Of a DNA stretch of 64,000 bases, positions 4,201 to 60,773 are shown piece after piece (the stretch's first letter is position 1; every line of letters starts with the position of its first letter). The notes beneath the pieces were generated by a model. That model searched no databases. It was given only the letters and a program-made list of their open reading frames with translations, and was not told where the DNA came from. The stretch comes from Candidatus Latescibacterota bacterium (lineage in GTDB: Bacteria; Latescibacterota; UBA2968; UBA8231): contig CBDFJF010000002.1 of the NCBI GenBank assembly GCA_965248265.1, positions 1,536,001-1,600,000 on the forward strand. Direction: 5' to 3'. The translations under genes and the position numbers were made by a program.

Positions 4201-4531
4201 TCGTTATCTCCTGCTGTGCCTCCTCCAGGAATCCGGCCATTCTGCGGTAGTAATCGGCGTACTGCTGCAGGTCCTTGTAGCTGCCAGTGATGATGAAGTC
4301 CTTCACGTTCATCCGGACCATCAGCATGTTGGCCTGCAGGCGGCCAGACAGGTTGGCGTCTCGAGCCATTTCGCGATAGCGGGTAAACCCGGATGAGGAA
4401 GTATCAATCACGTAATAGCTGATGCCTGATACCCCACTCAAGAGAACGAGGACTGCCGTAAAACCCCAGATCAGTCTGCGTCCCGCGGACGCAGACTGGG
4501 CTTGCCCTATCATCTGTCTGAGTTTCAGCAT
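1241..4531 (-). CDS. Hybrid sensor histidine kinase (periplasmic helical sensor, HisKA, HATPase, two REC domains, Hpt)
   Basis: H-box [17 protein letters not shown]-box [15 protein letters not shown]-boxes DTGIG and YGGTGLGL, two receivers (VLVVDDN..FLDW; LLVEDN..LMDMQMP), Hpt AHSLKG. Confidence 0.95.
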
Positions 4532-4570: not shown

Positions 4571-4780
4571 ACTTAGACGCGAAACTCGATATTATAGACA
4601 AAAGTGACCCCGATTGCCAAACCAAGACGCTCGGCATCTGCGCGTGCCCAGGACCGAGGAGTCGCCAGGCCCGGTGATGGCTCACACGCCAGCCTGCACG
4701 TAGCTTTTCGGTCGCGTGGTGAACCACTTCACTGGGTATCACAAAGAGGGTCTCAGCTCGGGGACCAGATCGAGGCACAT

Positions 4781-7459
4781 ATGACGCTCAGGCAAAAGCT
4801 CATCGGTACTCAGGCGCTGGCTGTGATCGCGGTATTGCTCGGGATGTCCTTCTATTACCAGTACAGCTCCCTGGCGGCGGAGCGCGAACTGGCAGACAAG
4901 CTAACAGCGACCGCCGATCTACTGGCCCAGAACACTGCAGCCGCAGTCGTGTTTCTCGACCCGGAGACGGCGAGCGAGATGCTGGCGTCGCTGCGGGTCG
5001 AGCAGCATGTGATGAACGCGTCCATCTACAACGAGGCCGGCGAGGTTTTCGCCAGCTACCAACGTGAGGACGTAACCGAGTTTTCCTTTCCTGCAGTGCA
5101 GACGTCCGGTACGACGCTCACCGAGGACCAGTTTGAGCTCTTCCATCCACTGACGTCTGGAGGCGTGTCGGTCGGCACCGTGTACCTGCGCTCGAACTTG
5201 ACGTGGCTCGAGACAAGGCGTCGAGAACTCCTCCAGCAAACCGTCATTCTACTTTGTCTCGGTGGAGGGATCTCCACCCTTTTGTTGTTGTTGTTGCAGC
5301 GATCGATCGCTGGACCCCTGCGCCGACTCTCGGAGGCCAGTGCGCGCGTTGCCGAGAGCAGTGAGCACACCCAGGTGGAAGGTGGTGGTACCGACGAATT
5401 GGAGGCTCTGGCCACGGCCTTCAACCAGATGGTGTCGCAGGTGCAGGCTCGAGACCGCTCATTGCGGGAAGCGCGCGACACACTTGAGCAGCGCGTGGAA
5501 GAGCGCACGACGGAGCTGCGGCAGGCCACGGAAGCGGTGCAGAAGGAGCTCGACGGCCGTCTCGCGGCCGAGGAACGCATCCAGGCGCTCGTTGACTCGG
5601 CGGCGGCGGGGATGCTGGTGGTCGATGGCCAGGGCCGGATGGCGCTCGTCAACGATTACTTCGTGTCCATGTTCGGCTACGAGCGCGACGAACTGATCGG
5701 GCAGCCTGCCGTGATGCTGGTTCCGGATGCGGCGCGCGAGATCCACGAGGGGGAACTGCACGATTTTCTGGATGACCCCGACGACCCTGGACAGGGACGG
5801 TTGAGGAGCCTGCACGGACGCCGAAAGGACGGCAGTGAGCTGCCTCTCGAGATCGGTATAGCGCCCATGGTCACGCAGGAGGGCACGTTCGTGTCGATGG
5901 TCGTCATCGATGTGACCGATCGCAAGCGGGCGATGGAGGAGCTGAATGCGGCGCGTGACCTGGCGGAGCGGACGAATGCGGCCAAGAGCGCCTTCATGGC
6001 CAACATATCGCACGAGCTTCGCACGCCGCTCAACGGCATCATCGGTGCCGGGGAGATCCTGCAACACGGTAGTTTCGGTCAGCTGTCGCCACAGCAACAC
6101 GAGTATGTCGGCACCGTGCTGGAGAGTGGACAGCAACTGCTCAAGTTGATCAACAACATCGTCGATGTGGCGAGGATGGAGTCCGGCGAACTGGCACTGG
6201 CACCGGGGGCGGTCGACCTAAAGAGGGTTCTCGGCGAACTGGAAGAATCCTTCGGCGTGCGCGCGGCCGAAAAGGGATTGGCGTTCAACATCGACCTCGA
6301 CGGAGAGGTGCCGCAGGCGATCGTCATCGATGGGCACAGGCTGCGTCAGGTGCTTGGCAGCCTCATCGACAACGGTATCAAGTTCACCAAAAGGGGTAGC
6401 GTCCTGCTGCAGGTGAAGAGCAGCACCGCTGCTGAGATAGGACAGTGCAACCTGACCTTCTGTGTGCGTGACACGGGCCCCGGCATCCCGGACGATCAGC
6501 AGCAGGGCATCTTCGAGGCCTTCGGGCAGCGCGAGGGCCAGAGTATCAACGAGTACGGTGGGGTCGGAGTCGGCCTGGCACTGACACGACGTATCGTCGA
6601 CAGCATGGGAGGCACAATCCATCTGCAAAGCGTCCTCGGCGTGGGCTCGACCTTTGAGGTCGTCCTGACCGAGGTCCCGACGGCGTCGTTGGAGGAGATC
6701 GCCGAGGAGGTCCCCCACGTCGACGCAGATCGCGTCACCTTCCACGCGGCAAAAGTGCTGGTGGCGGATGACGTGCACACCAACCGGCACCTGATCAGGG
6801 GGTTCCTGGAGACCTACGGTCTTGCGGTAGTGGAGGCGGATAACGGCGCCGAAGCGATCGACGCGGTGCGTCGCGAGTCGCCGGACCTGGTGCTGATGGA
6901 CGTCAAGATGCCGGTCCTCGACGGCTTCAAGGCGACGGAACGGCTGAAGGCGAACGAGGCGACGCGAGAGCTGCCCGTCATAGCCCTGACGGCGTCGGTG
7001 ATGCGTGAGTCGGAGACAGAGATCCGCGAGCTGTTCGACGGCTTCCTGCGCAAGCCGGTCGGCCGCGATCACCTCGTGGAGGAGTTGGCGCGCTTCCTCT
7101 CAAACGAAGACGCTGCCGCAGGGGAGGAGTTTGGCGCAGGCGCGGAGGGGCCGGTGTGGTCACCTGATACCCTGGACGATGCGATGCGGGCGCGGTTGCC
7201 GGAGCTGCAGGAGGTAGTGGACGGGGAACTGCAGACCGAATGGGAGGAGGCCAACCACACACAGATTCTCAACAATGTGGAGGCCCTCGGCGAGCGCGCT
7301 GGCGAGCTTGGCCGGGAGTACGGGTTCGAGCCGCTGCGCGACTGGGGCGAGCGCCTGCAGGTCCAGGCCAGCACCTTCCAGATGGACGCGATGCCGAAGA
7401 CGCTGGAAGAGTTCCCTGGAATGGTGTTGCAGTTGAGAGCAGCGGTGGAGGGGGCGTAG
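4781..7459 (+). CDS. Hybrid sensor histidine kinase (CHASE8-like sensor, HAMP, PAS, HisKA, HATPase, REC, C-terminal helical domain)
   Basis: Start re-assigned to ATG 4781 after GAGG. AQNTAAAVVFLDPETASEMLASL is CHASE8-like. Also HAMP DELEALATAFNQM, PAS GRRKDGSELPLEI, H-box ANISHELRTPLN and REC LVADD..LVLMD. Confidence 0.92.
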   Translation: MTLRQKLIGTQALAVIAVLLGMSFYYQYSSLAAERELADKLTATADLLAQNTAAAVVFLDPETASEMLASLRVEQHVMNASIYNEAGEVFASYQREDVTEFSFPAVQTSGTTLTEDQFELFHPLTSGGVSVGTVYLRSNLTWLETRRRELLQQTVILLCLGGGISTLLLLLLQRSIAGPLRRLSEASARVAESSEHTQVEGGGTDELEALATAFNQMVSQVQARDRSLREARDTLEQRVEERTTELRQATEAVQKELDGRLAAEERIQALVDSAAAGMLVVDGQGRMALVNDYFVSMFGYERDELIGQPAVMLVPDAAREIHEGELHDFLDDPDDPGQGRLRSLHGRRKDGSELPLEIGIAPMVTQEGTFVSMVVIDVTDRKRAMEELNAARDLAERTNAAKSAFMANISHELRTPLNGIIGAGEILQHGSFGQLSPQQHEYVGTVLESGQQLLKLINNIVDVARMESGELALAPGAVDLKRVLGELEESFGVRAAEKGLAFNIDLDGEVPQAIVIDGHRLRQVLGSLIDNGIKFTKRGSVLLQVKSSTAAEIGQCNLTFCVRDTGPGIPDDQQQGIFEAFGQREGQSINEYGGVGVGLALTRRIVDSMGGTIHLQSVLGVGSTFEVVLTEVPTASLEEIAEEVPHVDADRVTFHAAKVLVADDVHTNRHLIRGFLETYGLAVVEADNGAEAIDAVRRESPDLVLMDVKMPVLDGFKATERLKANEATRELPVIALTASVMRESETEIRELFDGFLRKPVGRDHLVEELARFLSNEDAAAGEEFGAGAEGPVWSPDTLDDAMRARLPELQEVVDGELQTEWEEANHTQILNNVEALGERAGELGREYGFEPLRDWGERLQVQASTFQMDAMPKTLEEFPGMVLQLRAAVEGA

Positions 7460-7503
7460 CCCATGGACCAGACGTGTCCTGCCGGGAGGATGGCCACCAG
7501 ACC

Positions 7504-9744
7504 ATGACCATTCGAGCGAAGTCCTTCCTGATCTTCATGCTCCTTGTTGCCGGCCTGCTGGTCGTGGTGTGGCAGACCTCGACGTCGATCTTGCTCGAAG
7601 ACTATGTCGCCCTCGAACAGGCCAAAGGTGAACAGAATCTGGAGCGTCTCAGGCGGTCGGTCGGGCAGGAGCTGTCGCAGATGGACCGGACAGCGAACGA
7701 TTGGGGCTCCTGGAACGAGACCTACGAGTTCGTCGCCGATTTGAATCCGGAATACATAGCGCAGAACATCACGCCAACGACCTACGATTCGTTGGGGATC
7801 ACTCTCAACCTGGCCCAATACCTCGACCTGGAGGGGCGTGTCGTCTTCGATCGTGGTTTCGACTTCCACCGTCACCAGTGGGTGGCAGCAGCGGATCTCA
7901 GCGACCACCACACTGAGGAGGGCCTCCTGCGCCCCCTCGCGCTGGACGAGGCCCTGTCGGGAATAGTCATGGTCGATGAGGGTCCCATGCTGACGATCGT
8001 GCGGTCGATCCTGACCAGCGCCGCGGAAGGTCCCAGCCGGGGCCGCATCGTCATGGGACGCTTGCTGGATGACAACGTGGTTCAGCATCTGGGCAGAACG
8101 ACGAGACTCGATGTCGTCGCCCACGAGTGGAATGCCGTCGACCTGCCGCCTGACGTCGAGTCGGCCCAGGACGAGCTGTCGAGCAAGACTCCGACGTCCG
8201 TCCAGTTCCCACGAGACGACTTAGCGCACGGCTATCTGCTGATCGACGACATCTACGGCGAGCCGGCGGTGATCCTAAAGGCGACGATGGATCGCGAGAT
8301 CTATCTCAGCGGCAAGTCGACGATCGAATTCCATATCGTGCTGCTCCTGGCGGGCGGGCTGGTCTGCGTCCTCATCTGTATGCTGTTCCTCGATCGGACC
8401 GTGCTGGTCCGACTGACTCGGCTGGTGAGCCAGGTCAACCAGATACGGGAGGACCGCAGCATTCGCATGGAGGCGCCTGGCAACGACGAGATCTCCGTCC
8501 TCGCCCGGCAGTTGAATGTTATGCTGACGGCCGTCGAGCAGGCGGAGGCGAACCTGCGCGAATCGAACCAGTCTCTGGAACGGCGAGTCGAGGAGCGCAC
8601 CGAGGAGCTGGCCGGCCTCAATAGACAGCTCGAGTCGGAGATGGTCGAGCGCAAGGCGGCCCAGCGCGAGGCGGAGGAGCAGGCCGAGGTGGCAGAGAAG
8701 GCCAATTACGCCAAGAGTGCCTTCCTGGCAAACATCAGTCACGAAGTCAGGACGCCGATGAATGCGATCCTCGGCTATTCTGACATCTTGCAGCGTGCCC
8801 TGACCGATCCACAGCAAAGGGGCTATTTGAGCTCCATCGACAGCAGCGGTCGGACCCTGATCAGCCTGCTGGAGAGCATCCTCGACTTCTCGAGGCTGCA
8901 GTCCGGCGATCTCGTCCTTGACACGTCCGCAATGCAAGTGCGAAGCCTGATCACCGATCTGGACCGATCGTTCGAGTCGGAAGCCGAAGCCAAGGGTTTG
9001 TCCTACTCCTCCAGCATCGCCGAAAACATCCCGGATGTTGTGCTGATGGACGAGAGTCGGGTCCGGCAGGTGTTGCTCAACCTGGTTGGAAACGCCATCA
9101 AGTTCACCGGATCCGGCACGGTGACCCTGCAGGTGACGGCTTCGGAGGATGCCTCAGGTGCGACGATCGTCTTCTCGATCCGTGATACGGGGATCGGGAT
9201 TGCGCCGGATCAGCAAGAGCGAATTTTCGGTGCCTTCGATCAGCAGGCCGGTCAGAGCATCAACGAATATGGTGGTACCGGCATGGGCCTCGCTCTGAGC
9301 AGGGGCCTCGCGACGTTAATGAATGGCGAAATTACCGTGGCGAGCGAACTTGGTGCGGGCAGTGAGTTCACCGTGACGATTCCCGGGGTGGAGGTGATCA
9401 CGCGTCCCACAGCTCCGCAGGAGATCGAAACTGATCAGGGACAGGTCAGCATCGATGTCGAGCTCTCAGATGACACCATCGCCGGGCTACCCGACCTGCT
9501 CGAGCGTCTGCAGTCGCAGACAGCGACGTTGGACTCGTTGACCGAGACGCTGACGATCAACGACCTGGAGTCGTTCGCGCGGAGCATGTCCAGCATGGGT
9601 CGAGAATTCGACTACCCACCCCTCGAGAACTGGGCGAACATCCTGGCGGAGCAGGTCCGTGGGTTCGACATGGACGCGATCCCGCACACGCTCCAGGCGT
9701 ATCTGGATGTGCAAGAGGCAATCAAAGCCCGTGTGGGTCGGTAG
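7504..9744 (+). CDS. Sensor histidine kinase (CHASE4, HAMP, HisKA, HATPase, C-terminal helical domain; no receiver)
   Basis: Start ATG 7504 (MTIRAKS). CHASE4 signature DWGSWNETYEFV, HAMP DEISVLARQLNVM, H-box ANISHEVRTPMN, N-box NLVGNAIKFT. Confidence 0.92.
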   Translation: MTIRAKSFLIFMLLVAGLLVVVWQTSTSILLEDYVALEQAKGEQNLERLRRSVGQELSQMDRTANDWGSWNETYEFVADLNPEYIAQNITPTTYDSLGITLNLAQYLDLEGRVVFDRGFDFHRHQWVAAADLSDHHTEEGLLRPLALDEALSGIVMVDEGPMLTIVRSILTSAAEGPSRGRIVMGRLLDDNVVQHLGRTTRLDVVAHEWNAVDLPPDVESAQDELSSKTPTSVQFPRDDLAHGYLLIDDIYGEPAVILKATMDREIYLSGKSTIEFHIVLLLAGGLVCVLICMLFLDRTVLVRLTRLVSQVNQIREDRSIRMEAPGNDEISVLARQLNVMLTAVEQAEANLRESNQSLERRVEERTEELAGLNRQLESEMVERKAAQREAEEQAEVAEKANYAKSAFLANISHEVRTPMNAILGYSDILQRALTDPQQRGYLSSIDSSGRTLISLLESILDFSRLQSGDLVLDTSAMQVRSLITDLDRSFESEAEAKGLSYSSSIAENIPDVVLMDESRVRQVLLNLVGNAIKFTGSGTVTLQVTASEDASGATIVFSIRDTGIGIAPDQQERIFGAFDQQAGQSINEYGGTGMGLALSRGLATLMNGEITVASELGAGSEFTVTIPGVEVITRPTAPQEIETDQGQVSIDVELSDDTIAGLPDLLERLQSQTATLDSLTETLTINDLESFARSMSSMGREFDYPPLENWANILAEQVRGFDMDAIPHTLQAYLDVQEAIKARVGR

Positions 9745-9972: not shown

Positions 9973-10719
9973 CTATGCCGCGAATGGGTGGGGAGTCACT
10001 CCGAAGTTCTTGTAGGAGTCGACTCCGCGCAGGAGGATGGGCTTCTGGGGGTGCACGGTCTTTTCTTCGGTTGGACGGACTTCGGGTCTGATGAAACGGA
10101 CGGTGAGGCCGCAACGGCGCCGGTCGGAGATGTTGGGGTTGCTGCAGTGGTAGGTCTTGCCGTCGTGGATGGAAATCTGACCCGCTTCCAGTTCCAGGTG
10201 CCTGACCTTTGACTTGTCGATGAGCTCATCCGGGATTTCCTGGTTGATACTGAGCAAGTTGCCGTCGCGTTCTGATTTTCCGTGTGGGGCGATGGTGCCG
10301 TTGATGTGGGAACCGGCGACCATTTGCATACAGCCATTTTCGCGGTCTGCTTTGTCGACAGCAATCCAGGCCGTGTGTGCTTCGGGCGGTTCGAGGCCCC
10401 AGTAGGTCACATCCTGGTGCCAGGCGACGAATTTTTTGCCTTCCTCCGGGCCCGGATACTTGCAGAAGAAGTGAGTCGCCAGCAGCATGACGTCGTTGCC
10501 AATGAGAGCCGAGATGGCATCGACGATGCGTTCGTCTGAGGCCAGTAGCCAGATGAATTCGTGCTCGAAGTGCCTCGACACCATGCCGATGGAGGTAGTC
10601 TCCCTGCCAAGACGTTCCTCGAGCTCATCGAATTGCTGCCGGTAGCCTGAGATCTCTTCAGGCGAGAAGATGTCGATGCCGGTGAGAAATCCATCTCTTT
10701 CGTATGCCGCTACGTCCAT
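9973..10719 (-). CDS. Phytanoyl-CoA dioxygenase (PhyH) family Fe(II)/2OG dioxygenase
   Basis: YERDGF N-terminus, WHQD iron motif, GCMQMVAGSH, distal H..SNPN.S..RR. Confidence 0.92.
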   Translation of the reverse strand: MDVAAYERDGFLTGIDIFSPEEISGYRQQFDELEERLGRETTSIGMVSRHFEHEFIWLLASDERIVDAISALIGNDVMLLATHFFCKYPGPEEGKKFVAWHQDVTYWGLEPPEAHTAWIAVDKADRENGCMQMVAGSHINGTIAPHGKSERDGNLLSINQEIPDELIDKSKVRHLELEAGQISIHDGKTYHCSNPNISDRRRCGLTVRFIRPEVRPTEEKTVHPQKPILLRGVDSYKNFGVTPHPFAA

Positions 10720-21971: not shown

Positions 21972-22250
21972 ATGAGAAGAACGACAGTCACACTGGATGC
22001 CGATGTGGAGCAACGCCTCAGGGAAGCGATGCGGCGGCAGGGCAAGGGCTTCAAGGAAACCCTCAACGACGTCCTGCGCCGCGGCTTGACCCCGTGTTCG
22101 GATCAGGAAAGCGAGCCATTCGAGGTAGAGTCTCGCCCGTTGCGCCTGCGGACGGGACTCGATCCTGCGCGACTCCGGGATTTGGACGATGACCTCGAAA
22201 TCGAGGAATTCCTACGCAAAACGGCTCGTCTCGCCGAGCACGGGAAGTGA
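21972..22250 (+). CDS. vapB: VapB-type antitoxin (ribbon-helix-helix)
   Basis: MRRTTVTLDADV...FKETLNDVLRRGL with an acidic C-terminus. GTGA overlap with the PIN gene. Confidence 0.85.
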   Translation: MRRTTVTLDADVEQRLREAMRRQGKGFKETLNDVLRRGLTPCSDQESEPFEVESRPLRLRTGLDPARLRDLDDDLEIEEFLRKTARLAEHGK

Positions 22251-22675
22251 TCGTCCCCGACGCCAACCTGCTGCTCTACGCGTATGATGAAGCCAGTCCG
22301 TTCCACGCCCGAGCCAAGGCGTGGTGGAGCAACTGCCTCTCGGATCCCGAACCGGTGGGCCTCGTCGCCGTCGTCCTATTCGCCTTCGTACGCGTCGGCA
22401 CCAGTCCCAAGGTTTTCGAGAGCCCTCTGTCTATCACCGAGGCCACCCATCACGTCCGGGCTTGGATGCAGCTCCCCACGACGGAGCTGCTATCAGTGGT
22501 CAGCGCCGATGTCGATCAGGCTCTGGTCTGGTTGGCGGAGGCAGGCTCAGGCGCCCATCTGACAACGGACGCCCAGATCGCCGCCGTCGCCATGAGATGC
22601 CGCGCGCAAGTGCAGACCGCCGACACGGACTTCGCACGCTTCCCCGGTGTGAAATGGAAGAATCCCATCATTTGA
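22247..22675 (+). CDS. vapC: VapC PIN-domain ribonuclease toxin
   Basis: MIVPDANLLLYA, DAQIAA, TADTDFARFPGVKWKNP. Confidence 0.92.
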   Translation: MIVPDANLLLYAYDEASPFHARAKAWWSNCLSDPEPVGLVAVVLFAFVRVGTSPKVFESPLSITEATHHVRAWMQLPTTELLSVVSADVDQALVWLAEAGSGAHLTTDAQIAAVAMRCRAQVQTADTDFARFPGVKWKNPII

Positions 22676-29321: not shown

Positions 29322-30578
29322 TCAGCCCGGCAAGATCCGTTCAACCGGCTCGTGCAATACGGTCTTCACGATAACTTCAGAATGCAGGGTGCGGTGCACC
29401 GGACAGCGCTCGGCGATTTCCAGCAGGCGTTGGCGTTGCACCTCGTCGAGATCGCCACGTAGCTCAATCCTGCGCTCGATGTGATCGATCCACCCATCGG
29501 TAGCCTCGCATTCGGCACAATCCCGCGCGTGAATCTTGCTGTGGCTGGATTCTACAGTCACCGACTCGAGTGGCCACTTCTTTCTGTCGGCGTACATGCG
29601 CAGGGTTATGGAGGTGCAGGCGTTCAGGGAAGCCAGCAACAGATCGTAGGGTGTCGGACCCTGATCTGTGCCGCCAGCGTCAAGGGGTTCATCGGCTACG
29701 AGCTGGTGGCCGCGGACTTCGATGTCGGTGGCGTACCCTGACGGTCCTGTGCGAGCCGTCACAGGGGAGTCCGCCGCTGCCGGGTCCGGCACAGCCTCTG
29801 CTGCCTCGCTGACATCACCCGACAGGTACTTGTGTGCCCACGCGGCGATGACGGAACCGATGTACTGCGAGTCGGCCCTGTTCGAAAGCAGATGATTGGC
29901 CGTGTCCAGCGAGACGAAGCTCTTGGGATGCTTGGCAGCAAGGAAGATGCGAGAGGCATTTTCGATGCTGACCGTTTCGTCGTCAGGGGCATGGAACACG
30001 AGCAGGGCCCGATCCAGGCCGGCGATTGCAGTCTGGGCATCGGCTGCCTCGACATCGTCGAGGAACTGCTTCTTGAAGGTGTAGGTGGTTCCCGCCACGT
30101 CGACCTCGGCCTGGCCCTGCGACACTATGGTTTCTCTTACGGAGTCCAGCACGTGGGTCAGATGGGCGGGCTCGTAGGGCGAGTTGATGGTGGCGACCGC
30201 GACGGAATTCGGTATGGACGATGCCGCCCACAGGGCAGCGGTTCCGCCCAGGGAATGGCCAACCAGAATACGGACCGGGCCGTAGTTGGATTCCACGAAA
30301 CGGGCGGCGGCCAACAGGTCGTCGACGTTGGTGGTGAAGTTGGTGTCGCTGAAGTCGCCTTCGCTGTCGCCGAGTCCGGTGAAGTCGAAGCGCAGGACGC
30401 CGATCCCCTCATTCACCAGGGAACGACTGATGTTCACCGGCGCCTTGAAATCCTTGTTGCAGGTGAAGCAGTGGGCGAAGAGGGCATAGGCTACAGGATG
30501 ATTCCCCTGTGGCTGCTCCAGCAGCGCGGCGAGTTTGTGACCGGACGCGGAATCAATAGTGACCTTCTTCGGGGCCAT
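29322..30578 (-). CDS. Bifunctional alpha/beta hydrolase / OsmC family protein
   Basis: Start ATG 30578. [23 protein letters not shown]; OsmC ADEP...GPTPYDLL...CT...CPVHRTL. Confidence 0.93.
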
Positions 30579-30589
30579 GGTTCTCTCGT

Positions 30590-31345
30590 TTAGCGAAAGT
30601 GCACGTCCGCGGCATGCATTGCTCCCGGTCCTTTGTCCATTCGGAGCAGCTGTCGTTGACGCGGCGTGAGTCCGTCGAACCATTCGGGTGGAAAGTCGTC
30701 GTGGGGATCAAGTTGGAACAGGAGCATGTGTTTGCGGTAATGGCCGAAAAGGGCATGACGGGTACGGTCGCTGGTGTTGGCACCTCCTCCGTGCCAGGTC
30801 TGGCCGTTGAAGACGATCACCGAGCCGGCCGCGGCCGTGGGTTGAAACACGTGCTTGACATCGAATTCCTCCGGAGGCTCGCCCAGTCCGCTCTTGTGCG
30901 AGCCCGGGACCACGCGGGTGCCACCGATTTCCCGACTGAAATCATCCAGCATCCACACCGTATTCATCATCACGGGTGAGGTCATGTTGAGCATGTAGGT
31001 AGGTATGTCGCTGTGCAGACTCTGGTAGCCGTCTCCGGGACGGACGATGCGTGAATTGAGACTGCCGAGGATGAGGGAAGGTTCGAGGAAATGCTCCAGC
31101 AGGGGCAAGACGCGCGGATGGTCGATACATTGGTGGAATACGCGATCGAGGACCGGCAAATTGGAGACGTGGCGGGCAGTGCCACGGTGTGCGTGTTCGG
31201 TGCCCGCTTCCTGCTCGCAGCGGATGAGCGCTTCGCGCATGCCGCTGACTTCATCCGGCGTCAGCACGCCTACGAGCAGGGTGAAGCCATACACCTCTAT
31301 TTCCTGAATGGCCTGTTCCTGTTCGTTCACAGAAGATCTCCTCAC
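30590..31345 (-). CDS. PhyH family dioxygenase
   Basis: LHSD, WMLDDF...GGTRVVPGSH, WHGGGAN.S...R. Confidence 0.9.
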   Translation of the reverse strand: MRRSSVNEQEQAIQEIEVYGFTLLVGVLTPDEVSGMREALIRCEQEAGTEHAHRGTARHVSNLPVLDRVFHQCIDHPRVLPLLEHFLEPSLILGSLNSRIVRPGDGYQSLHSDIPTYMLNMTSPVMMNTVWMLDDFSREIGGTRVVPGSHKSGLGEPPEEFDVKHVFQPTAAAGSVIVFNGQTWHGGGANTSDRTRHALFGHYRKHMLLFQLDPHDDFPPEWFDGLTPRQRQLLRMDKGPGAMHAADVHFR

Positions 31346-44090: not shown

Positions 44091-44543
44091 ATGAAGATTC
44101 TCGTGGATGCCGATGCCTGCCCGCGTGCAGCGAAAGAGATCCTCTTCCGTGCCGCCGAACGAACCAAGGTCCCGATGACACTGATCGCCAACCAGTACAT
44201 CCGCGTACCCAAGTCCGCATATATCGACAGTATCGCCGTTGCCGCTGGCACGGATGAAGCCGATGATCGTATCGTCGAACTTGCCGAAGCTGACGACCTG
44301 GTGATCACGGCCGACATTCCGCTGGCCGATCGTGTTGTCAGCAAAGGGGCCACGGCTCTCGATCCCCGGGGTAAGCTACTCACCCAAGCCAACATCAAGG
44401 AGCGCCTCGCCACCCGCGACCTGCTCGAGGAGTTGCGCAATGCCGCTCTCGTCGACGGGGGCCCCGCCTCCTATGGACAGCGAGACAGCCAGGCCTTTGC
44501 CAATGAGCTGAACAAGATCCTGCAGTCACGCCCCTCAACCTGA
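44091..44543 (+). CDS. yaiI: YaiI/YqxD (UPF0178) family protein
   Basis: MKILVDADACP, ADD.I, DLVITADIPLA, PRG. Confidence 0.93.
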   Translation: MKILVDADACPRAAKEILFRAAERTKVPMTLIANQYIRVPKSAYIDSIAVAAGTDEADDRIVELAEADDLVITADIPLADRVVSKGATALDPRGKLLTQANIKERLATRDLLEELRNAALVDGGPASYGQRDSQAFANELNKILQSRPST

Positions 44544-44594: not shown

Positions 44595-45374
44595 TCAGCC
44601 GAAAATGACCGGGTTCAAGTCGTAATCATCCAGGTTCGAAATGACTGCGGTCTCCTGATCCTTCCTGGGCCAGGAGTTTTCCGTTCTCATATGGATCGCG
44701 AAACTGCGACGCGGTCGACCGGAGGTATTGGGGTGACTGCCGTGGAAGGTCAGCTTGTGATGAAAGGCAACCTGCCCGGCTTTCAGAAGCACCGGCACCG
44801 CTTCGCACTGGCTGCCCTCCGGCGCATTGATCGCATCCTGAAAGGAATCATGCGTGGTGTCAAAGAAATTCCCCTGATCGAGAAAACCCCATTTGTGTGA
44901 GCCCCGTACATAGAGCATCGGTCCGCAATCATCACTGACATCGGTCAGGGCTACCCATGCCGTGAAGAGCTCACTCTCCTCTTCCCAGAATCCCCAGTGG
45001 TCGCGGTCCTGATGCCATCCCACTTTGGTTTCGTGTGCACCCAGGCCGGGCTTGATCAGCAGCTGCACGGCCCAGACCTGCACCCATCGTGCACCCGTAA
45101 TCGCAGCGGCCCATTCTCCGAGAGCTGGATTCGAAACAAATTGTCGTATGGTGAGATCGGCGCGGTGGGAAGAGTCGATCTTGATCATCTTGCCCGGCGG
45201 TCCGACCGAAGGGTCGAAGGGACTCCGAGGGGCGATGCCGGTTTCGTACTGCCCGGATGCTACCAGATCCTGATGTGATATGGCCTTGGCAACAGACTCT
45301 TCATCAAAAAGAACGGGAGAAAAACAAAACCCCTGTTCCTCGAATTGCAATTTCGCTTGTTCGTACTTTGTCAT
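44595..45374 (-). CDS. PhyH family dioxygenase
   Basis: GWHQD, FTAWVAL.DV...GPM..V.GSHKWG, TFHGS.PN.S..PRRS. Confidence 0.92.
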   Translation of the reverse strand: MTKYEQAKLQFEEQGFCFSPVLFDEESVAKAISHQDLVASGQYETGIAPRSPFDPSVGPPGKMIKIDSSHRADLTIRQFVSNPALGEWAAAITGARWVQVWAVQLLIKPGLGAHETKVGWHQDRDHWGFWEEESELFTAWVALTDVSDDCGPMLYVRGSHKWGFLDQGNFFDTTHDSFQDAINAPEGSQCEAVPVLLKAGQVAFHHKLTFHGSHPNTSGRPRRSFAIHMRTENSWPRKDQETAVISNLDDYDLNPVIFG

Positions 45375-49200: not shown

Positions 49201-50301
49201 TCAGCTTTTTTCTACCAAACGGCAGCAGCGCACGTAGGTGACTTGCTCTTCGGTGACGTAGAAGGCGACGATGATGGTTCCGTCTGATAGCTGCGTGATC
49301 GATGGGGTCCCGAACGTGAAGTGATGGTACGAGTCGAAAGCGTCCTCGACGAGGTCACGCTTCCTCGACAGCACGGGTGCGCTCCTGACGCGGGCGGGCT
49401 CGATGCCCCACAGCTCGAGATGATGCTCCTCATCGAAACTCGCACCGCCGTCATCAGATAGCACCGCGCGCACGCCCATCGGTTCGCGGCGGTGGTTGGT
49501 CACGGCGATCACGCGGCCACTCTGCAGACACAGCACGTCGGTTACCTGGCCCCAGAATCTGGCGTTCTGCGGATCGCTCCAGGTTTCACCGGCGTCTCTC
49601 GAAAACGCGGTGTGGACGTTCAGCCCCGAGTCACTTTTCATGTCATGGGTCCAGAATGCAGCCAGCAGACTGTCGTCGGCAAGCTGCGTCAGGCGAAGGT
49701 CGAAATAATACCTGTTGTCAACCGGCCCCTGAACCCGCCGCCACGGTTCCCACGAGCGAGCGCCGTCGTGGGATCGAGTGATGGTGGCCGCCCAATCCGG
49801 TGGCTCGTCGTCGGTTCGATCCTCACCCCACTCACCGGCGGCTATGATGGTGCCATCTGCCATCGTCAACAGGTTGCCACCAGGTCCCATGCGATCGAAT
49901 GGGGCACTGTCTATGGGAGCGAGCGCCGACCAGGTATCTCCGCGGTCCTGAGAGGTGGCGACAAGCTGTCCATCCCCTGTACCGCTGCGGGGGTAGCGCA
50001 CGCAGGCGACGGTCTGTCCGTCTGCAGTTACGCCGAAGCCGCCGGGAAGCCGCCAGCCTTCAACTGCATCTGGGGGTTCGGGCAGTTGGCCGGCGCGATC
50101 CCAGGTCACTCCTCCATCTGTTGAACGGTGGATGACGACAACGCCGTCGTCGCTCTCTCGGGCGGTAGCATGCCGGCACATGCACAGCAGCGTGTCGTCA
50201 GGCAACGCCTGAATCGACGGGAAGGCGACGTACTCGTTTTTCAGGTTGGGATGGGGATTGCGATAGATCTCGCAGTGCCCGGATACCTCGAGATGGGCCA
50301 T
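49201..50301 (-). CDS. Sialidase-like Asp-box (BNR) beta-propeller protein
   Basis: Five Asp boxes: STDGGVTW, SQDRGDTW, SHDGARSW, SRDAGETW, SDDGGASF. No signal peptide. Confidence 0.85.
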   Translation of the reverse strand: MAHLEVSGHCEIYRNPHPNLKNEYVAFPSIQALPDDTLLCMCRHATARESDDGVVVIHRSTDGGVTWDRAGQLPEPPDAVEGWRLPGGFGVTADGQTVACVRYPRSGTGDGQLVATSQDRGDTWSALAPIDSAPFDRMGPGGNLLTMADGTIIAAGEWGEDRTDDEPPDWAATITRSHDGARSWEPWRRVQGPVDNRYYFDLRLTQLADDSLLAAFWTHDMKSDSGLNVHTAFSRDAGETWSDPQNARFWGQVTDVLCLQSGRVIAVTNHRREPMGVRAVLSDDGGASFDEEHHLELWGIEPARVRSAPVLSRKRDLVEDAFDSYHHFTFGTPSITQLSDGTIIVAFYVTEEQVTYVRCCRLVEKS

Positions 50302-50530: not shown

Positions 50531-51232
50531 ATGAAACCTGCGACGAAAGCCGCTCTATTCGGGCTCTGGGCCCTCGTGCTCTCAAGCGGTTGCGGTTACG
50601 GTGACGATGTGGCTTACAGCCCGTCGGCTCCTGCCTACGATGCGGAAAGGGATCTGGGCCGGCCAACCACCGCCACGATTCAAGACCGCACCGGCAAGAT
50701 CTGGGACGTGGCTCACGCGCAGGAATACGGCATGGTGTCATCCGGCTTCGAATTCGGTCTGGGACCTTATGCCATCAAACCCATAATGAACCCGCAGATG
50801 CTCTCCGCGGGCGATTTTAACTACCCTTCGAACCACGACAATTTTCGCGTCATGGGGGTTAGGCTGAACGGTTTCATCCGCGCCTATCCCCTGGGCATCT
50901 TGACAGGGCACGAAGTTGCCAACGAGCAGTTCGGAGACGCGCACGTTGCCGTGGCCTACTGACCACTGGTCGATCTGGCTGCCGTGTACAGCCGAGAGAT
51001 TGACGGCGAAATTCTGACCCTGAGCGCCAGTGGATGGACCTATCGCAGAACCTTCGTGCTGTTCGACTACGAGACCGAAAGCATGTGGTACCACCTGCAA
51101 GGTGACGACGGATTGACCTGCATCAGCGGTTTCTACGCCGACCGCAAGCTGCCTGAACTCGAATCCAGCCTTACGCGCTGGAACCTTTGGAAAGCGGAAT
51201 TTCCGGATTCAGAGTTCCTCAAGTACCCCTAG
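50531..51232 (+). CDS. DUF3179 domain selenoprotein (lipoprotein), UGA at 50960-50962 read as Sec144
   Basis: ORFs 50531-50962 and 50984-51232 share one frame and are separated by a single TGA. The joined protein reads RAYPL.IL..HEVANE...VAVAY-U-PLVDLAAVYSR...SG..Y....VLFD.ETESMW...W..WK..FPDS, the DUF3179 pattern with U at the conserved Cys. Lipobox-like LSSGC. Confidence 0.85.
50963..51004 (+). promoter_or_regulatory. Candidate bacterial SECIS hairpin
   Basis: GTCGATCT (50969-76) pairs with AGATTGAC (50997-51004), with one G-U. GGCTG (50977-81) pairs with CAGCC (50989-93). The G-containing loop CCGTGTA begins about 20 nt after the UGA. Confidence 0.65.
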
Positions 51233-51348: not shown

Positions 51349-52254
51349 CTACACTGGCTTGCGATCCTTCAGGTTCTGTCCCACATACCGGTACCCAGGC
51401 ACATTGCCGGCGCAATGCGTTCCGCGAAACAGCGTCTTCCGCATCGCGGGCATCCGTTCCACCAATGCCTCAGGCGGCTGCCATGGGCTCCACCGGGACC
51501 CGACGCTGTTGTAGAGATTAAAGATCGCCACCCGCTCGTCGTCTGCATTGGTCCAGGGGCACGTGCTGTGCGCCAAGGCCTCGGTAAAAAACAACACCGA
51601 CCCTGCCGGGCATTCATAGGTGTCCCACACCGCCGAATGCGGGTCTTGTATTGACTCGGGCGCGGCATAGGCCGCCTTGTGGCTGCCCGTGGCCAGGAGT
51701 GTCCCGCCCTGTCCCATCTTCACAGGGGCCAATTCCCACACCACCCGTGTCAGGCCACTGAACGACTTGCCGGGGATGCTTTGATAGTGGTGTGAGTCGT
51801 AGGCGAAGCGGAATAAGCCGCTGCCATTGTGCGGACCGAAAACCCCTTCTCGTTCGGGTGTGGCCGCCGGGTTGCGCAAGCCGCTACTCTCCATGCGAAA
51901 GCCATAGCACTCCGGGCTCGACAGATGTGGAAAAGCCAGGAATTCGTTCAAAAAACCCACCACGACTGGATGGTCCGTCAACTTCTGCAGTGGGCCGGCG
52001 ACATGGCTGCGCTCGTGCTCTGGCAGTGACTTCGGATTTCGCACCACCCTCAACGCGTATTCACGCATCGCCTCGATCTCGTCATCGGCCAACACGCCCG
52101 GCACCAACAGCCATCCCCGCGTATCAAAGAGGTACTTCTGCTCCTGCGTCAACGCTATCACCGGTTCGCCATCGGCGTTCCTGGTGGGTAGGTCGCCTTC
52201 GGTAATCTCCAACTTATGTCCCAGATTCTTGTCTACTACGTATGCTTCGCTCAT
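51349..52254 (-). CDS. PhyH-like Fe(II)/2OG enzyme with HxG motif
   Basis: QKYLFDTRGWLLVPGVL, PHNG, VVWEL...GGT....GSHK, AGSVLFFTEALAH. Confidence 0.85.
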   Translation of the reverse strand: MSEAYVVDKNLGHKLEITEGDLPTRNADGEPVIALTQEQKYLFDTRGWLLVPGVLADDEIEAMREYALRVVRNPKSLPEHERSHVAGPLQKLTDHPVVVGFLNEFLAFPHLSSPECYGFRMESSGLRNPAATPEREGVFGPHNGSGLFRFAYDSHHYQSIPGKSFSGLTRVVWELAPVKMGQGGTLLATGSHKAAYAAPESIQDPHSAVWDTYECPAGSVLFFTEALAHSTCPWTNADDERVAIFNLYNSVGSRWSPWQPPEALVERMPAMRKTLFRGTHCAGNVPGYRYVGQNLKDRKPV

Positions 52255-53449: not shown

Positions 53450-54256
53450 TCAGCTATCGCCCTTGGCCTGCGTCGCTTCACGTTTCTTGGCCGCGTAGGT
53501 GTCGGTCTCGAGTTGCCAGTAAAAATCCCGGGCCTTCTCCAATGGTGGCTGACTCACCTTGAAGCCGAGTACGAAGGCGCGCCGGGGCTCCTCGGAGGTG
53601 TTGGGCGGCGTGTAGTGGCAGGTCCTGCTGTAGTGGAAGGTTGCTCCTCCAGCGGGCAGTGGGCAGGCAACGGCCGTCGATATATCGAAATGGCCATCGT
53701 CCATCTCCAGGCCGTGGATTTTGGGATTGTTGTCGATGTGGTGATGTGGCGCCACCTCGGCGCGGTGGGTTTGGGGGATGAAATGCATGCACCCGTTTTC
53801 AAGCGTGGCCGGTTGAAGGGGCATCCACACGCTCAGGGCCAGGTCGTTGCTGGCTGGGTCCCAGTAGGCGATATCCTGGTGCCACGGCGTGGCGACGCCG
53901 ATGCGGGCCGGCTTGAGGATGGCGTGAGCTCCCACGACTTCGCATCCCGGCCCCAGCAGCTGCGTGCTGATCGCTAAGGCATTGGCCTCGTACAGACTGT
54001 CCCTCAGGTCGTCGGCGTATTTTCGGGGTTCCAGGATTTGCGGCAGAGCGGGCTCGGTGCCCTCCTCGTCTGGACCGGCAAGGTCATACTCATGGCCCTC
54101 CTCGCGTCCGGCCCGGCGCGCGAAGATCTCGTCGTAAGCCAGGCGCATCCGCTCCACCTCTTCATCGGTGGTGATTCGTTCGACGGCCAGGTATCCCTGG
54201 TCGCGGAAGAGGTCGACTTGCTCCCTAGTAACGGTGATCATCGACTGCTGTCTCAT
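53450..54256 (-). CDS. PhyH family dioxygenase
   Basis: FRDQGYL, TPWHQD, ENGCMHFIP.TH, GGATFH...T.HY..PN.S..PRRA. Confidence 0.92.
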   Translation of the reverse strand: MRQQSMITVTREQVDLFRDQGYLAVERITTDEEVERMRLAYDEIFARRAGREEGHEYDLAGPDEEGTEPALPQILEPRKYADDLRDSLYEANALAISTQLLGPGCEVVGAHAILKPARIGVATPWHQDIAYWDPASNDLALSVWMPLQPATLENGCMHFIPQTHRAEVAPHHHIDNNPKIHGLEMDDGHFDISTAVACPLPAGGATFHYSRTCHYTPPNTSEEPRRAFVLGFKVSQPPLEKARDFYWQLETDTYAAKKREATQAKGDS

Positions 54257-58184: not shown

Positions 58185-59009
58185 ATGACCACTGCGTCGC
58201 AGCCCGACATCGATCAACTCGTCAACGAACTCCACATCAACGGCTTCGTGGTGTTCGAGGATCTCATACCCGTAGAAACCATTGACCGGATCTACGCCCG
58301 GTGCAAGCCGATGATGGATCGGATCGAGGCCTGGAATTCGACCGTGCTGAAGGGCGAGCGCTCGACAGGCCAGGGCCGTGTGACTCAGAAACAGCGGTTC
58401 AAGATCTACCCGCCCTTCGAAACGCCGTTCAGTGATCCTGTCATCACCGAGAACCCGCTGGTCCTGGAGCTACTCGAACGGGTCTGGGGCACCGAGGACA
58501 TCGAGCTCCATTCATACGCCTCAAACTGTCCGGCTCCGGGTACCGAATACCAGAACTGGCACCGCGATGGAATGTTGATCGCGCCCAACCTGGCCCTTCC
58601 TGTCTATCCATCCCTTGGGCTGAACTTCTCCCTCGTCGATACGAACGAAGACAACGCCAGTACCGAGATCATCCCCTGTACGCATCACTGCTCCATCGAA
58701 AGCCTGCACCACATCCCCGGCTCCGAAACGGCTCAGTCATTGAACGAGGTTATCGAGGCGGGGCGCTATCCGTCCAAGATGCGCCTGAACCTCAAGCGCG
58801 GCAGCGCCTGGATCGTCGACCCGCGAATCATTCACCGCGGCATGCCAAATCGCTCCGACCACACACGTATCATGCTGGGTGTCGGTTACACCCAGTCGTG
58901 GTTCGGAGGACGTGGCGACGACACGGTGCCGGAGCTGACGCAGGACCAGTTCGATCAACTGTCCGAGCGTGGCAAGCGCCTGCTGCGAAACTGCACGATC
59001 GTCGATTGA
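58185..59009 (+). CDS. PhyH family dioxygenase
   Basis: NGFVVFEDLI, QNWHRD, LVD...N.STEIIP.TH, D.R..HRG.PN.S...R. Confidence 0.9.
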   Translation: MTTASQPDIDQLVNELHINGFVVFEDLIPVETIDRIYARCKPMMDRIEAWNSTVLKGERSTGQGRVTQKQRFKIYPPFETPFSDPVITENPLVLELLERVWGTEDIELHSYASNCPAPGTEYQNWHRDGMLIAPNLALPVYPSLGLNFSLVDTNEDNASTEIIPCTHHCSIESLHHIPGSETAQSLNEVIEAGRYPSKMRLNLKRGSAWIVDPRIIHRGMPNRSDHTRIMLGVGYTQSWFGGRGDDTVPELTQDQFDQLSERGKRLLRNCTIVD

Positions 59010-59032
59010 GTCGGGTCGGGGAGAGTCTCTCC

Positions 59033-59770
59033 ATGAACAGCCATCAAGCGATCGCCCACCTCGACGAGCACGGATACGTCATACTCGAGGGTGCGCTGAC
59101 CCCGGATCAGGCCAATCAGCTGCGTGATCGCTCAGCCGAGCTCATCACGCAAGAGCGGGCAGCCAGTGGCGAGTACATCTATCTGGACGGCAAATCACAG
59201 CGGGTCTGGAATCTGGTCAACAAGGGGCGTATCTACGAGGAGATGATCCAGCATCCGAGGGTGCTGGAGTTACAGGAGTACCTGCTGGGTGACGATTGCA
59301 TACTGAGCAGTTTTACGGTCAATCTCATCGGGCCGGGGTCGGCGGGCGGGCGGTGGCATAGCGACTCGCCGCCGATTTGCACTTTTCCCGATCCGCTGCC
59401 GCCGAATGCTTTCTGCGCCAATACCATCTACGTGCTCGACGACTTTTCCCCCCAGAACGGAGCGACGTGGATGGTGCCTGGCAGCCACAGGCGCGACCAC
59501 AGGCCCGAGCCGCAGGGGGAGTACGACGACGGGATCCAACTTGCAGCGCACAAGGGTGACATCGTCGTCTTCAACGGCGGGACCTGGCACGCCAGCGGCG
59601 CCAATCACACCTCAAGCGAGCGGATGATCCTGCTCGGCTTCTTCTGCCGCTCGTTCGCGAAGCCGCAACAAGACCTGTTCAGGCTGGCGCAGCCGGAACT
59701 CGTCGAACGGGCGACGCCGACGCTCAAGCGGTTGCTGGGGTTCGAGTCGCAGTCCGGACTAAGGACTTAG
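59033..59770 (+). CDS. PhyH family dioxygenase
   Basis: Start ATG 59033. RVWNL, WHSD, DDF..NGAT..VPGSH, WHASGAN. Confidence 0.92.
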   Translation: MNSHQAIAHLDEHGYVILEGALTPDQANQLRDRSAELITQERAASGEYIYLDGKSQRVWNLVNKGRIYEEMIQHPRVLELQEYLLGDDCILSSFTVNLIGPGSAGGRWHSDSPPICTFPDPLPPNAFCANTIYVLDDFSPQNGATWMVPGSHRRDHRPEPQGEYDDGIQLAAHKGDIVVFNGGTWHASGANHTSSERMILLGFFCRSFAKPQQDLFRLAQPELVERATPTLKRLLGFESQSGLRT

Positions 59771-59786
59771 GAAACGGATCCTGAGT

Positions 59787-60578
59787 TCACGCCCACTCTT
59801 CGCAACCCCGAAACGACATGTGCTCGCCGGCGACGTATCGCGGCTGCTCCTTGTAGTCATTCACACCCGGCACCGGCTCTCCTCGAAACAGGTAGGCACA
59901 GGGCCAATCGGTCGTGATGCGGGTGGTCGGCGGCATATAGATGATGGAGCCGCCGCGCCGCCACTGATCACTCGTGTTCTGGTTGGAGCTGTGCAGGGTT
60001 AGTGGATGATGAACGGAGATGTCTCCCGGGTTCAGCTCGATGTCGCAAGCCCGACTGTCATCGATGACTTCGGGCGCGGCTTCCGAACCGAGCAGGTTGC
60101 GCTTGTCCGGAGACGCCTGATGGGACAATGAGCCTTGCCGGTGCGACCCTGGAATGACCCGGACACATCCGTTTTCGCGCGTCGTCTTCGTGACCGCGAA
60201 CCAGACCACGATCACCTCCATCGGTTCGAGCGGCCAGTAGTGTGCGTCCTGATGCCAGCGAACCTCGAGACCCTTGCGCGGCGGCTTTGCAATGTAGTCG
60301 GCGGCGAAAAAGGCGACGTTGGGGCCCACGAAGGCCTCGGCCACATTCAATAGCCGCTCATCTGACAGAAAGCGAAGCCAGAAAGGGTCGGATGGAATCA
60401 ACCGATGGCCCAGACTTTCCGGCCGCAACTCAGGGTGCCGTTCGATCAACCAGTCGACGTGCCGGTCCAGTTCCTGAACGAAATCCGCATCCAGGACGTT
60501 GCGGACTACGACGGCTCCGTCGCGCTGATGCGCCTCCTGAATCCCACTCAAGTCTTCAAGACTGAACTCACTGATCAT
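59787..60578 (-). CDS. PhyH family dioxygenase
   Basis: Start ATG 60578. WHQD..YWPLEP, ENGCVRVIPGSH, HH...H.S..N.S...R. Confidence 0.92.
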   Translation of the reverse strand: MISEFSLEDLSGIQEAHQRDGAVVVRNVLDADFVQELDRHVDWLIERHPELRPESLGHRLIPSDPFWLRFLSDERLLNVAEAFVGPNVAFFAADYIAKPPRKGLEVRWHQDAHYWPLEPMEVIVVWFAVTKTTRENGCVRVIPGSHRQGSLSHQASPDKRNLLGSEAAPEVIDDSRACDIELNPGDISVHHPLTLHSSNQNTSDQWRRGGSIIYMPPTTRITTDWPCAYLFRGEPVPGVNDYKEQPRYVAGEHMSFRGCEEWA

Positions 60579-60773
60579 GGCTGCAGCTCCCTGCTTTTTT
60601 CGGACGGAACGCGTCTTCGAAATGGATACTACGTTGCAAGATTCCGGCGTGTCAAACTTCACGCTGTGGGCTCGCTGGCTCACGAATGACACTACGTCCT
60701 ATACTATTCGTTGACACGTATGACTCGACATGGATAGCGGTCGTTTCCCGCCGCTGAAGGAGGGCCAAAAAAA

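Follow-up and report, generated by a model that had tools for sequence, protein, structure and literature searches.

A predicted single-repeat DUF3179 selenoprotein with a lipoprotein signal peptide and a conserved SECIS-like hairpin in a Latescibacterota bacterium

The stretch of Latescibacterota DNA analysed here (64 kb, referred to as the window) carries on its plus strand a reading frame that extends from ATG 50531 to TAG 51230-51232 and is interrupted only once, by TGA 50960-50962. Does this TGA end a gene, or is it a selenocysteine (Sec, U) codon inside one? Translation with table 11 yields two ORFs in the same frame, of 143 aa (50531-50962) and 82 aa (50984-51232); reading through the TGA yields a product of 233 residues (...HVAVAY-U144-PLVDLAAVYSRE...). 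The two ORFs parted only by the TGA and the joint protein of 233 aa had been pointed out in a sequence-only reading of the window, with which both the frame and the codon count agree. The gene is present as a single copy within the window and stands alone on the plus strand, the two flanking genes both lying on the minus strand. The protein-coding features and the neighbouring genes are as follows.

50531..51232, plus strand: complete predicted selenoprotein gene, 233 codons including the UGA-Sec codon 144, followed by a TAG stop (frame, single DUF3179 match)
50531..50593, plus strand: signal peptide ending in lipobox Cys21 (LSSGC), the predicted lipid attachment site (by eye)
50780..51223, plus strand: DUF3179 domain, single repeat, residues 84-231 (Pfam match; conserved fold from about residue 50)
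50960..50962, plus strand: in-frame UGA, predicted to be read as selenocysteine U144 (TGA in 90 of 91 copies, counting the window and the best 80 of 281 loci; Cys in homologues)
51119..51121, plus strand: distal Cys197 (LTCISG), common in the subfamily, not a required partner of Sec
49201-50301, minus strand: BNR/sialidase-like gene, neighbour
51349-52254, minus strand: PhyH-like gene (weak match), neighbour

The read-through protein, with U read as C, was compared with the Pfam profile DUF3179 (PF11376) and scored 113.4 bits (cut-off 27, E = 1.8e-32), which bears out its earlier assignment to this family; no NCBIfam family model matches it. The Pfam match forms one stretch, residues 84-231, that runs across the TGA, and in the homologue alignment the protein is conserved equally strongly on both sides of this codon. 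Because of this single match and the equal conservation on either side, positions 50531-51232 very probably constitute one functional gene. It would encode a 233-residue lipoprotein precursor, and its UGA codon 144 is very probably decoded as selenocysteine.

The N-terminus, MKPATKAALFGLWALVLSSGC, was judged by eye to consist of a basic n-region with K2 and K6, a hydrophobic core (AALFGLWALVL) and, after SSG, the lipobox Cys21 at 50591-50593; the lipobox was called by comparison with the lipobox pattern. Most homologues have similar N-termini, with a Cys following a hydrophobic stretch, and residues 1-45 are of low confidence in the AlphaFold2 model. The signal peptide would export the protein and Cys21 would be lipidated, tethering the protein to the membrane so that it faces the periplasm or the cell surface. 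These features are in line with the envelope-anchored lipoprotein that had been proposed.

Only positions 6-148 of the 292 positions of the Pfam profile are covered, since the window protein is a single repeat. A profile was built from 87 full-length sequences and compared with 1.84 billion cluster representatives; 7,997 proteins matched at E <= 0.001, of which 4,502 remained at E <= 1e-10 and 179 at E <= 1e-30. This single-domain profile is matched in two stretches by canonical DUF3179 proteins (300-450 aa), in four by a 1,004-aa protein and in six by a 1,587-aa protein. The two-repeat architecture extending over the 292-position Pfam profile is not found in the window protein. Since canonical members match the single-domain profile twice, the Pfam domain is a tandem duplication, and the window protein its one-repeat form.

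The best 150 representatives of this search were inspected at the column equivalent to U144. In the first repeats, Cys occupies this column in 106 of 115 cases and the CxxC motif is present in 92 of 115, whereas in the second repeats Asp is the commonest residue (47/104). U144 falls on the first Cys of the CPLC motif, as had been expected of a conserved DUF3179 cysteine; in the window protein Pro-Leu is kept and the second Cys is replaced by Val. Twelve of the 150 representatives comprise only the N-terminal part and break off just ahead of the Sec column, and 25 are single-domain proteins. Among the latter, 14 have Cys at the column, of which one has CxxC, and the other 11 have D, E, Q, R, S, W or G. 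The occurrence of D, E, Q, S or R in single-domain relatives would fit a role in binding no less than one in catalysis.

A word-indexed search found 39 database homologues. Exactly at the residue preceding the column (...VAVAY) 27 of them end, including the window's own 143-aa entry and entries sourced from NCBI, and two more end one residue earlier. Public annotation thus cuts this gene short nearly everywhere, just as it had been predicted that standard gene callers would split it. Nine homologues are of full length: six have Cys at the column and three (P0006, P0007 and P0011) have Trp. One more (P0002) has Thr within a diverged pentapeptide. The Trp entries lie on contigs of 776-1348 bp and, judging from these short contigs, are probably table-4 gene calls.

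Species-representative genomes were scanned with peptide patterns downstream of the TGA, and the best 80 loci of 281 relatives were kept. These 80 loci belong to Calditrichota (33), to no named phylum (21), to Latescibacterota (9), Bacteroidota (5), Deferribacterota (5), Gemmatimonadota (3), Krumholzibacteriota (2), Handelsmaniibacteriota (1) and Acidobacteriota (1), and ten of them carry two tandem gene copies. In the resulting 90 copies the column codon is TGA in 89 and TGT in one. Counting the window, TGA is kept in 90 of 91 copies from at least eight named phyla, a 90:1 ratio that overstates the prevalence of Sec in the wider family, the 80 loci having been kept as the best of 281 matches to a query of the Sec type. 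The sole TGT copy (L014:11326) adjoins a TGA copy. At another locus, L013, a TGA copy is also interrupted by an in-frame TAG, 17 codons before the TGA, and may be defective or decaying.

A quick maximum-likelihood tree was calculated from 104 rows, namely the 87 rows of alignment A3 and 17 chosen from the 25 single-domain representatives. In this tree Sec and Cys forms occur as sisters on short branches (L070/P0016, support 100; L051/P0012, support 99), and the starred branches require no fewer than 3-4 switches. The alternation of TGA and Cys that had been proposed as a check is therefore visible even between sister sequences. The window protein belongs to a clade (support 97) that also contains P0002 and copies from two Latescibacterota MAGs, and it is 69-74% identical to its nearest relatives. 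Among the ORFs of the window that have Pfam support, 18 of 31 terminate in TGA, as do many homologues of the gene; because TGA serves there as an ordinary stop, the genetic code does not appear to be altered.

The RNA downstream of the UGA is predicted to fold into a SECIS-like hairpin with the following parts.

50969..51004, plus strand: SECIS-like hairpin (predicted fold and covariation)
50969-50976 with 50997-51004, plus strand: lower stem, 8 bp (fold; 69.4% paired across homologues)
50977-50981 with 50989-50993, plus strand: upper stem, 5 bp (fold; 98.1% paired across homologues)
50982..50988, plus strand: apical loop CCGUGUA, 7 nt, the presumed SelB contact (G25 and U26 invariant)
50994-50996, plus strand: bulge, 3 nt, on the 3' side (fold)

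Six unpaired nucleotides separate the UGA from the lower stem and the predicted energy is -17.3 kcal/mol, so that the two-stem hairpin described before, starting 6 nt after the UGA, was reproduced. Taken by itself the hairpin is within chance (z = -1.33; 18 of 200 shuffles were at least as stable), and since its own folding energy does not exceed chance, its significance derives entirely from the comparison of homologues. For this comparison, 51 nt from the TGA were aligned without gaps in 86 copies, with columns numbered from the TGA. For the upper stem (columns 18-22 with 30-34), pairing amounts to 98.1% of cells. Its pair 19:33 is GC in 57 cases, AU in 16 (a compensatory change), GU in 10 and unpaired in 2, which is the covariation looked for in the homologues; pair 20:32 shows one switch from CG to GC, and U17-G35 is retained in 83 of 85 distinct rows. 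When the 3' partner was slid by 1-3 nt as a control, pairing of the 13-pair structure fell from 80.5% to 24-43%, and that of the 7-pair helix from 91.4% to 27-57%. The lower stem is perfect in the window but paired in only 69.4% of cells across the homologues. G25 and U26 of the loop are invariant in the 86 sequences, and the SECIS core of the window copy (upper stem and loop) is identical to the consensus.

According to the portion of PMC13188914 available to us, the bSECIS model has a UGA-loop spacing of 16-37 nt, a loop of 3-9 nt and an upper stem of 4-16 bp. The corresponding values of the window hairpin, 19 nt, 7 nt and 5 bp (6 bp with U17-G35), all lie within these limits. G25 is the third nucleotide of the 7-nt loop and would become the second only if C23:G27 closed a CGU triloop; C23:G27 varies uninformatively. 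No SECIS family of Rfam was found in the whole window at the gathering threshold. At E <= 10 the region 50900-51080 gave two matches to eukaryotic RNAs, a plant microRNA precursor and a lncRNA region, which were dismissed as chance. The absence of an Rfam match says little. According to PMC13188914, bSECIS elements of different families have little mutual resemblance.

As a control for coding constraint, selection on the RNA was assessed from the entropy of synonymous codon choice at well-conserved residues of 81 TGA copies free of indels. The codons around the UGA gave the following values.

Tyr -1 (the codon preceding the UGA): TAC in 69 of 73, 0.31 bits (Tyr elsewhere in the gene 0.99-1.0)
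Ala +7: GCC in 72 of 73, 0.10 bits (Ala elsewhere in the gene 1.4-1.8)
Val +8: GTG in 80 of 81, 0.10 bits (Val elsewhere in the gene 1.75-1.84)
Tyr +9: TAC in 75 of 76, 0.10 bits (Tyr elsewhere in the gene 0.99-1.0)

Because codons +7 to +9 have an entropy of only 0.10 bits, compared with 0.99-1.84 bits at equally conserved residues elsewhere in the gene, the RNA itself is under selection, and this is the strongest single test among those applied. The predicted SECIS is exceptionally well supported by these comparisons. The retention of TGA (90/91), the Cys in homologues, the covariation of the hairpin and the frozen synonymous sites together indicate that TGA 50960-62 is a selenocysteine codon and not a mutation.

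Decoding would proceed by the established bacterial mechanism. With the ribosome at the UGA, the hairpin 6 nt downstream would present its apical loop 19 nt after the UGA; SelB-GTP with Sec-tRNA(Sec) would bind this loop and insert Sec in competition with release factor 2. Within the 64-kb window none of selA, selB, selC and selD was found when 47 ORFs were scanned against Pfam, and the window contains no tRNA and no Rfam match at the gathering threshold. There are 181 mechanical TGA read-through candidates in the window, of which five, in gaps between assigned genes, were checked; none of the five is a convincing second selenoprotein gene. In the PIN and DUF188 candidates the domain did not reach across the TGA, and the other candidates picked belonged to no family.

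The Sec reading competes with other accounts of the TGA. Were it a nonsense mutation, a sequencing error or the mark of a pseudogene, the locus would make a 143-residue fragment or nothing; the two ORFs of table 11, the lack of Sec machinery within the 64-kb window and the possible decay of homologue L013 with its additional TAG would suit this account. It is almost certainly wrong, however, given that TGA stands in 90 of 91 copies from at least eight named phyla at 45-74% protein identity and with the part after the TGA fully conserved, that the downstream RNA is selected at synonymous sites, and that the window copy has the consensus upper stem and loop. An intact, ancestrally Sec-encoding gene might also have its UGA read without SelB and tRNA-Sec, by reassignment to Trp or Gly or by near-cognate read-through inserting Trp or Cys. 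The three entries with W at the column (P0006, P0007 and P0011) speak for this; their contigs of 776-1348 bp, however, suggest a table-4 artefact, TGA ends 18 of 31 Pfam-supported ORFs and many of the homologues, and the conserved hairpin with its invariant GU loop is what SelB-dependent decoding predicts. Read-through of this kind is extremely improbable. If instead the organism had lost Sec decoding, a once proper Sec gene would now be a recently stranded relic yielding a truncated product, which would agree with the finding of no second selenoprotein gene among five of the 181 window candidates. The gene shows no decay, though, with a frame open on both sides of the TGA and a SECIS core equal to the consensus, and it is 69-74% identical to its nearest relatives, although these include P0002 with Thr and not Sec; we consider such a relic very unlikely.

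With selenocysteine as the preferred reading of codon 144, the chemistry of the site can be considered. In 79 Sec forms the residue at +3 from Sec is V (61), I (11), E (2), Q (2) or A, M or K (one each), and never C, T or S. The Val that had been noticed in place of the second Cys of CxxC is the residue of 61 of the 79, and the lack of a second Cys is the rule of the single-domain subfamily and not a peculiarity of the window gene. The distal LTCISG position holds C in 65 of the 79 Sec forms, G in 10, S in 3 and A in 1, and 13 of the 79 have no domain Cys besides Sec. Single-domain members without Cys or Sec at column 144 retain the distal Cys. Since the subfamily lacks the +3 Cys and can do without the distal one, the active group would be a lone selenol. 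Between the two options offered before, a lone selenol or use of the distal Cys, the former is favoured; as an obligatory partner the LTCISG Cys is excluded, because it is absent from 14 of 79 Sec forms and kept in members that have neither Cys nor Sec at the column.

A structural model was generated with AlphaFold2 from the U144C sequence and an 87-row alignment. Mean pLDDT is 88, reaching about 97-99 over the part from residue 50 onwards, and the fold consists mainly of beta strands, with three short helices. Foldseek against the PDB gave no match at E <= 0.001 (best E 0.28; TM-score <=0.30 among the matches listed), and a search of PDB chains by sequence profile gave one chance match (E = 0.73). 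A thioredoxin fold, considered in view of the U/CxxC motif, was rejected with the model mostly beta and no PDB match at E <= 0.001. A sortase-like or L,D-transpeptidase-like arrangement of His, Cys and Arg (order H127...U144...R155) was likewise set aside, no such fold being found by Foldseek. Conserved residues are R117, Y119, H127, E128, R155, D179, T182, S184 and W186.

The genomic surroundings were compared in the best 80 of the 281 loci. The commonest neighbour encodes a signal-peptide protein of about 300 aa, at 20 of the 80 loci and on either strand; this uncharacterised, beta-barrel-like protein has no Pfam family, only weak porin-like matches (E ~0.1). It was not used as functional evidence, being present at only 20 of 80 loci and absent from the window. 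No recurrent partner gene for thiol redox or metal handling was found across these loci.

By inference from the above, the protein may be a one-selenol redox catalyst of the cell envelope, an assignment that we favour only tentatively. Its mature domain is a single, mostly beta repeat of about 150 residues with Sec at the first Cys of the repeat-1 CPLC. Sec would attack an oxidised substrate, whether disulfide, sulfenate, sulfoxide or peroxide, and an external thiol would then resolve the resulting selenenylsulfide or selenenic acid, Cys197 taking part where present. A somewhat unlikely alternative is that Sec144 binds a soft metal or a metalloid, such as Cu(I), Hg, Zn or a species of As or Se, as a ligand in a site between the subunits of a dimer that mimics the two-repeat form. 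The CxxC of the first repeats (92/115) with the Asp of the second (47/104) resembles a composite ligand set, single-domain members occur with D, E or Q at the column, and DUF3179 is found as one, two, four or six repeats. Against a metal site, the second Cys of CxxC is lost in single-domain Cys and Sec forms (one CxxC among 14 Cys forms), so that a ligand would be lost, and no metal-handling genes recur beside the gene. A broader proposal, which we regard as doubtful, is that the single-repeat U-P-L-V/I lipoproteins of Calditrichota, Latescibacterota, KSB1 and neighbouring lineages are an enzyme family of their own, which depends on Sec almost obligately and has a fold without solved relatives. 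They would be the ancestral half of DUF3179, with a lone selenol that needs no resolving Cys, and would form homodimers joining two selenols, or a selenol and a substrate site. If this proposal were true, the identity of the SECIS core across phyla would point to an unusually strict requirement for SelB recognition or for translational pausing tied to export.

Whatever its function, the window protein belongs to a large family, with the 7,997 cluster representatives given above, and Sec would mark the functional residue. The one-repeat Sec form offers a confidently modelled minimal construct (about 185 residues) with which the function of DUF3179 could be studied, and its near-invariant SECIS could be made into a model for finding Sec genes in these uncultured lineages. 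Knowledge of Sec decoding itself is unchanged by the finding. As far as the table rows of PMC9312934 and PMC13188914 go, DUF3179 is listed as a prokaryotic selenoprotein family with the motif UxxC/T and one Sec, in agreement with the earlier statement that some members are selenoproteins. A further paper has a DUF3179 protein only as an entry in a table. For selenoprotein families, the portions of these reviews available to us cite the metagenome study of Olavius symbionts (Zhang and Gladyshev, 2007; PMC1976440), which, in its accessible part, uses its own names for new selenoprotein families. The accessible portions of the DUF3179 selenoprotein literature make no mention of a one-repeat UxxV/I lipoprotein, nor of Calditrichota, Latescibacterota or KSB1; BSepDB may hold such a form. 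Because DUF3179 is already listed as a selenoprotein family, the novelty is modest and lies in a single-repeat, lone-selenol, lipoprotein variant.

The window protein can finally be compared with known systems. With the listed DUF3179 selenoproteins (PF11376), as far as their table rows allow, it shares the Pfam family, Sec at the first CxxC position and a hairpin directly 3' of the UGA. It differs in that the listed motif is UxxC/T, whereas the window protein and the 79 Sec relatives have V, I, E, Q, A, M or K at +3, and in being a single repeat with a predicted lipoprotein signal. To the canonical two-repeat Cys proteins (300-450 aa, W/Y-C-P-L-C) its repeat is homologous over the whole length, with the motifs RAYP, HE, C/U-P-L, SG and YDxxTxSxW in common. 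The canonical proteins are a tandem duplication with CxxC in repeat 1 (92/115) and usually Asp in repeat 2 (47/104), whereas the window protein consists of one repeat in which Sec replaces Cys, lacks the second Cys and has an additional Cys197 that is specific to the subfamily. It may work like the thioredoxin-fold thiol:disulfide oxidoreductases but, judging from the model, is not a member of them. Like the bSECISearch model and E. coli fdhF, in the parts of the sources available, the window element is a hairpin inside the coding region just after the UGA, with an invariant GU in the loop; unlike the bSECIS model it has G third in the loop, unless C23:G27 pairs, and it has no Rfam match. Whereas bSECIS elements of different families show little resemblance in the portion of PMC13188914 available to us, the predicted SECIS core of this subfamily is near-identical across phyla.

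The codon immediately upstream of the UGA was examined by synonymous-codon entropy in the 81 indel-free copies of the DUF3179 gene that carry the TGA. At this position (codon -1, window 50957-50959), tyrosine was encoded by TAC in 69 of 73 cases, and the entropy was 0.31 bits vs. approximately 1.0 bits for other tyrosine codons. This suggested that the sequence just 5' of the Sec codon is also constrained.

The Sec site itself varies among the relatives of the window protein. P0002 (230 aa), its closest full-length relative with 69% identity, reads T-S-E-A-G where the window protein has U-P-L-V-D, and the Sec/Cys site is therefore lost while the remaining domain is kept. P0002 is encoded on the same 111-kb contig as P0019, a Sec-truncated paralogue, and P0002 may be a non-catalytic paralogue alongside a Sec paralogue. 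In the multi-repeat proteins P0041 (1587 aa, six DUF3179 repeats) and P0046 (1004 aa, four repeats), Cys-type and Asp/His/Asn-type repeats alternate at the Sec column, which indicates that a two-repeat unit has itself been reiterated. The Handelsmaniibacteriota copy (locus L013) carries an in-frame TAG (10388-10390) 17 codons upstream of the TGA, in place of the conserved His in the "HE" motif; this copy is either a pseudogene or the product of an assembly error.

Comparison of the gene surroundings in the best 80 of 281 homologous loci revealed a conserved protein of approximately 300 aa with a signal peptide, adjoining the DUF3179 gene in 20 of them (the three loci listed below and 17 others). 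It lies 10 nt downstream on the same strand in some loci and is convergent in others. This protein could not be assigned to a Pfam family, its matches to DUF5777 and OmpG-porin being weak (E ~0.1), and it was not found in the window.

Loci with the ~300-aa neighbour protein
L004, 10703-11635
L011, 10619-11545
L053, 11526-12422

A radical-SAM protein with a C-terminal DUF3641 domain was located near the DUF3179 gene in 4 of the 80 loci (12365-13426 in L007, and three further loci), and a protein with a DsbD_N domain in L005. Both neighbours are too rare and were therefore given no weight as evidence.

The window contains seven to eight PhyH-type (phytanoyl-CoA dioxygenase family) paralogues within 64 kb, and three adjacent large sensor histidine kinases. 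Among the PhyH genes lie BNR/sialidase-like, GH113, GHL10, DHDPS-family, mannonate dehydratase and TonB-receptor genes; the whole looks like a large glycan-degradation region. The PhyH ORFs at 58185-59009 and 58898-59770 share 112 nt, which they read in different frames; the second ORF probably begins further downstream than called, the alternative being a frameshift.

PhyH-type and sensor kinase genes of the window
1241-4531 (-), hybrid kinase carrying Hpt and two receiver domains
4604-7459 (+), CHASE8-HAMP-PAS hybrid kinase
7240-9744 (+), CHASE4-HAMP kinase
9973-10719, PhyH-type
30590-31345, PhyH-type
44595-45374, PhyH-type
51349-52254, PhyH-type, weak, possible eighth member
53450-54256, PhyH-type
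58185-59009 (+), PhyH-type
58898-59770 (+), PhyH-type
59787-60692, PhyH-type

Other ORFs of the window were also weighed as selenoprotein candidates. The screen for TGA read-through gave 181 mechanical candidates, and the five selected from gaps between assigned genes included the two ORFs below, in each of which the domain lies entirely downstream of the TGA; both were therefore rejected as read-through genes and are regarded as ordinary genes.

Candidates from the read-through screen
22247-22675 (+), PIN-domain (VapC-like) ORF
44091-44543 (+), DUF188/YaiI ORF

At 29322-30683 (-), a C-terminal OsmC-like domain is fused to an alpha/beta-hydrolase in an uninterrupted frame. OsmC-like proteins are, besides DUF3179, also listed as a selenoprotein family.
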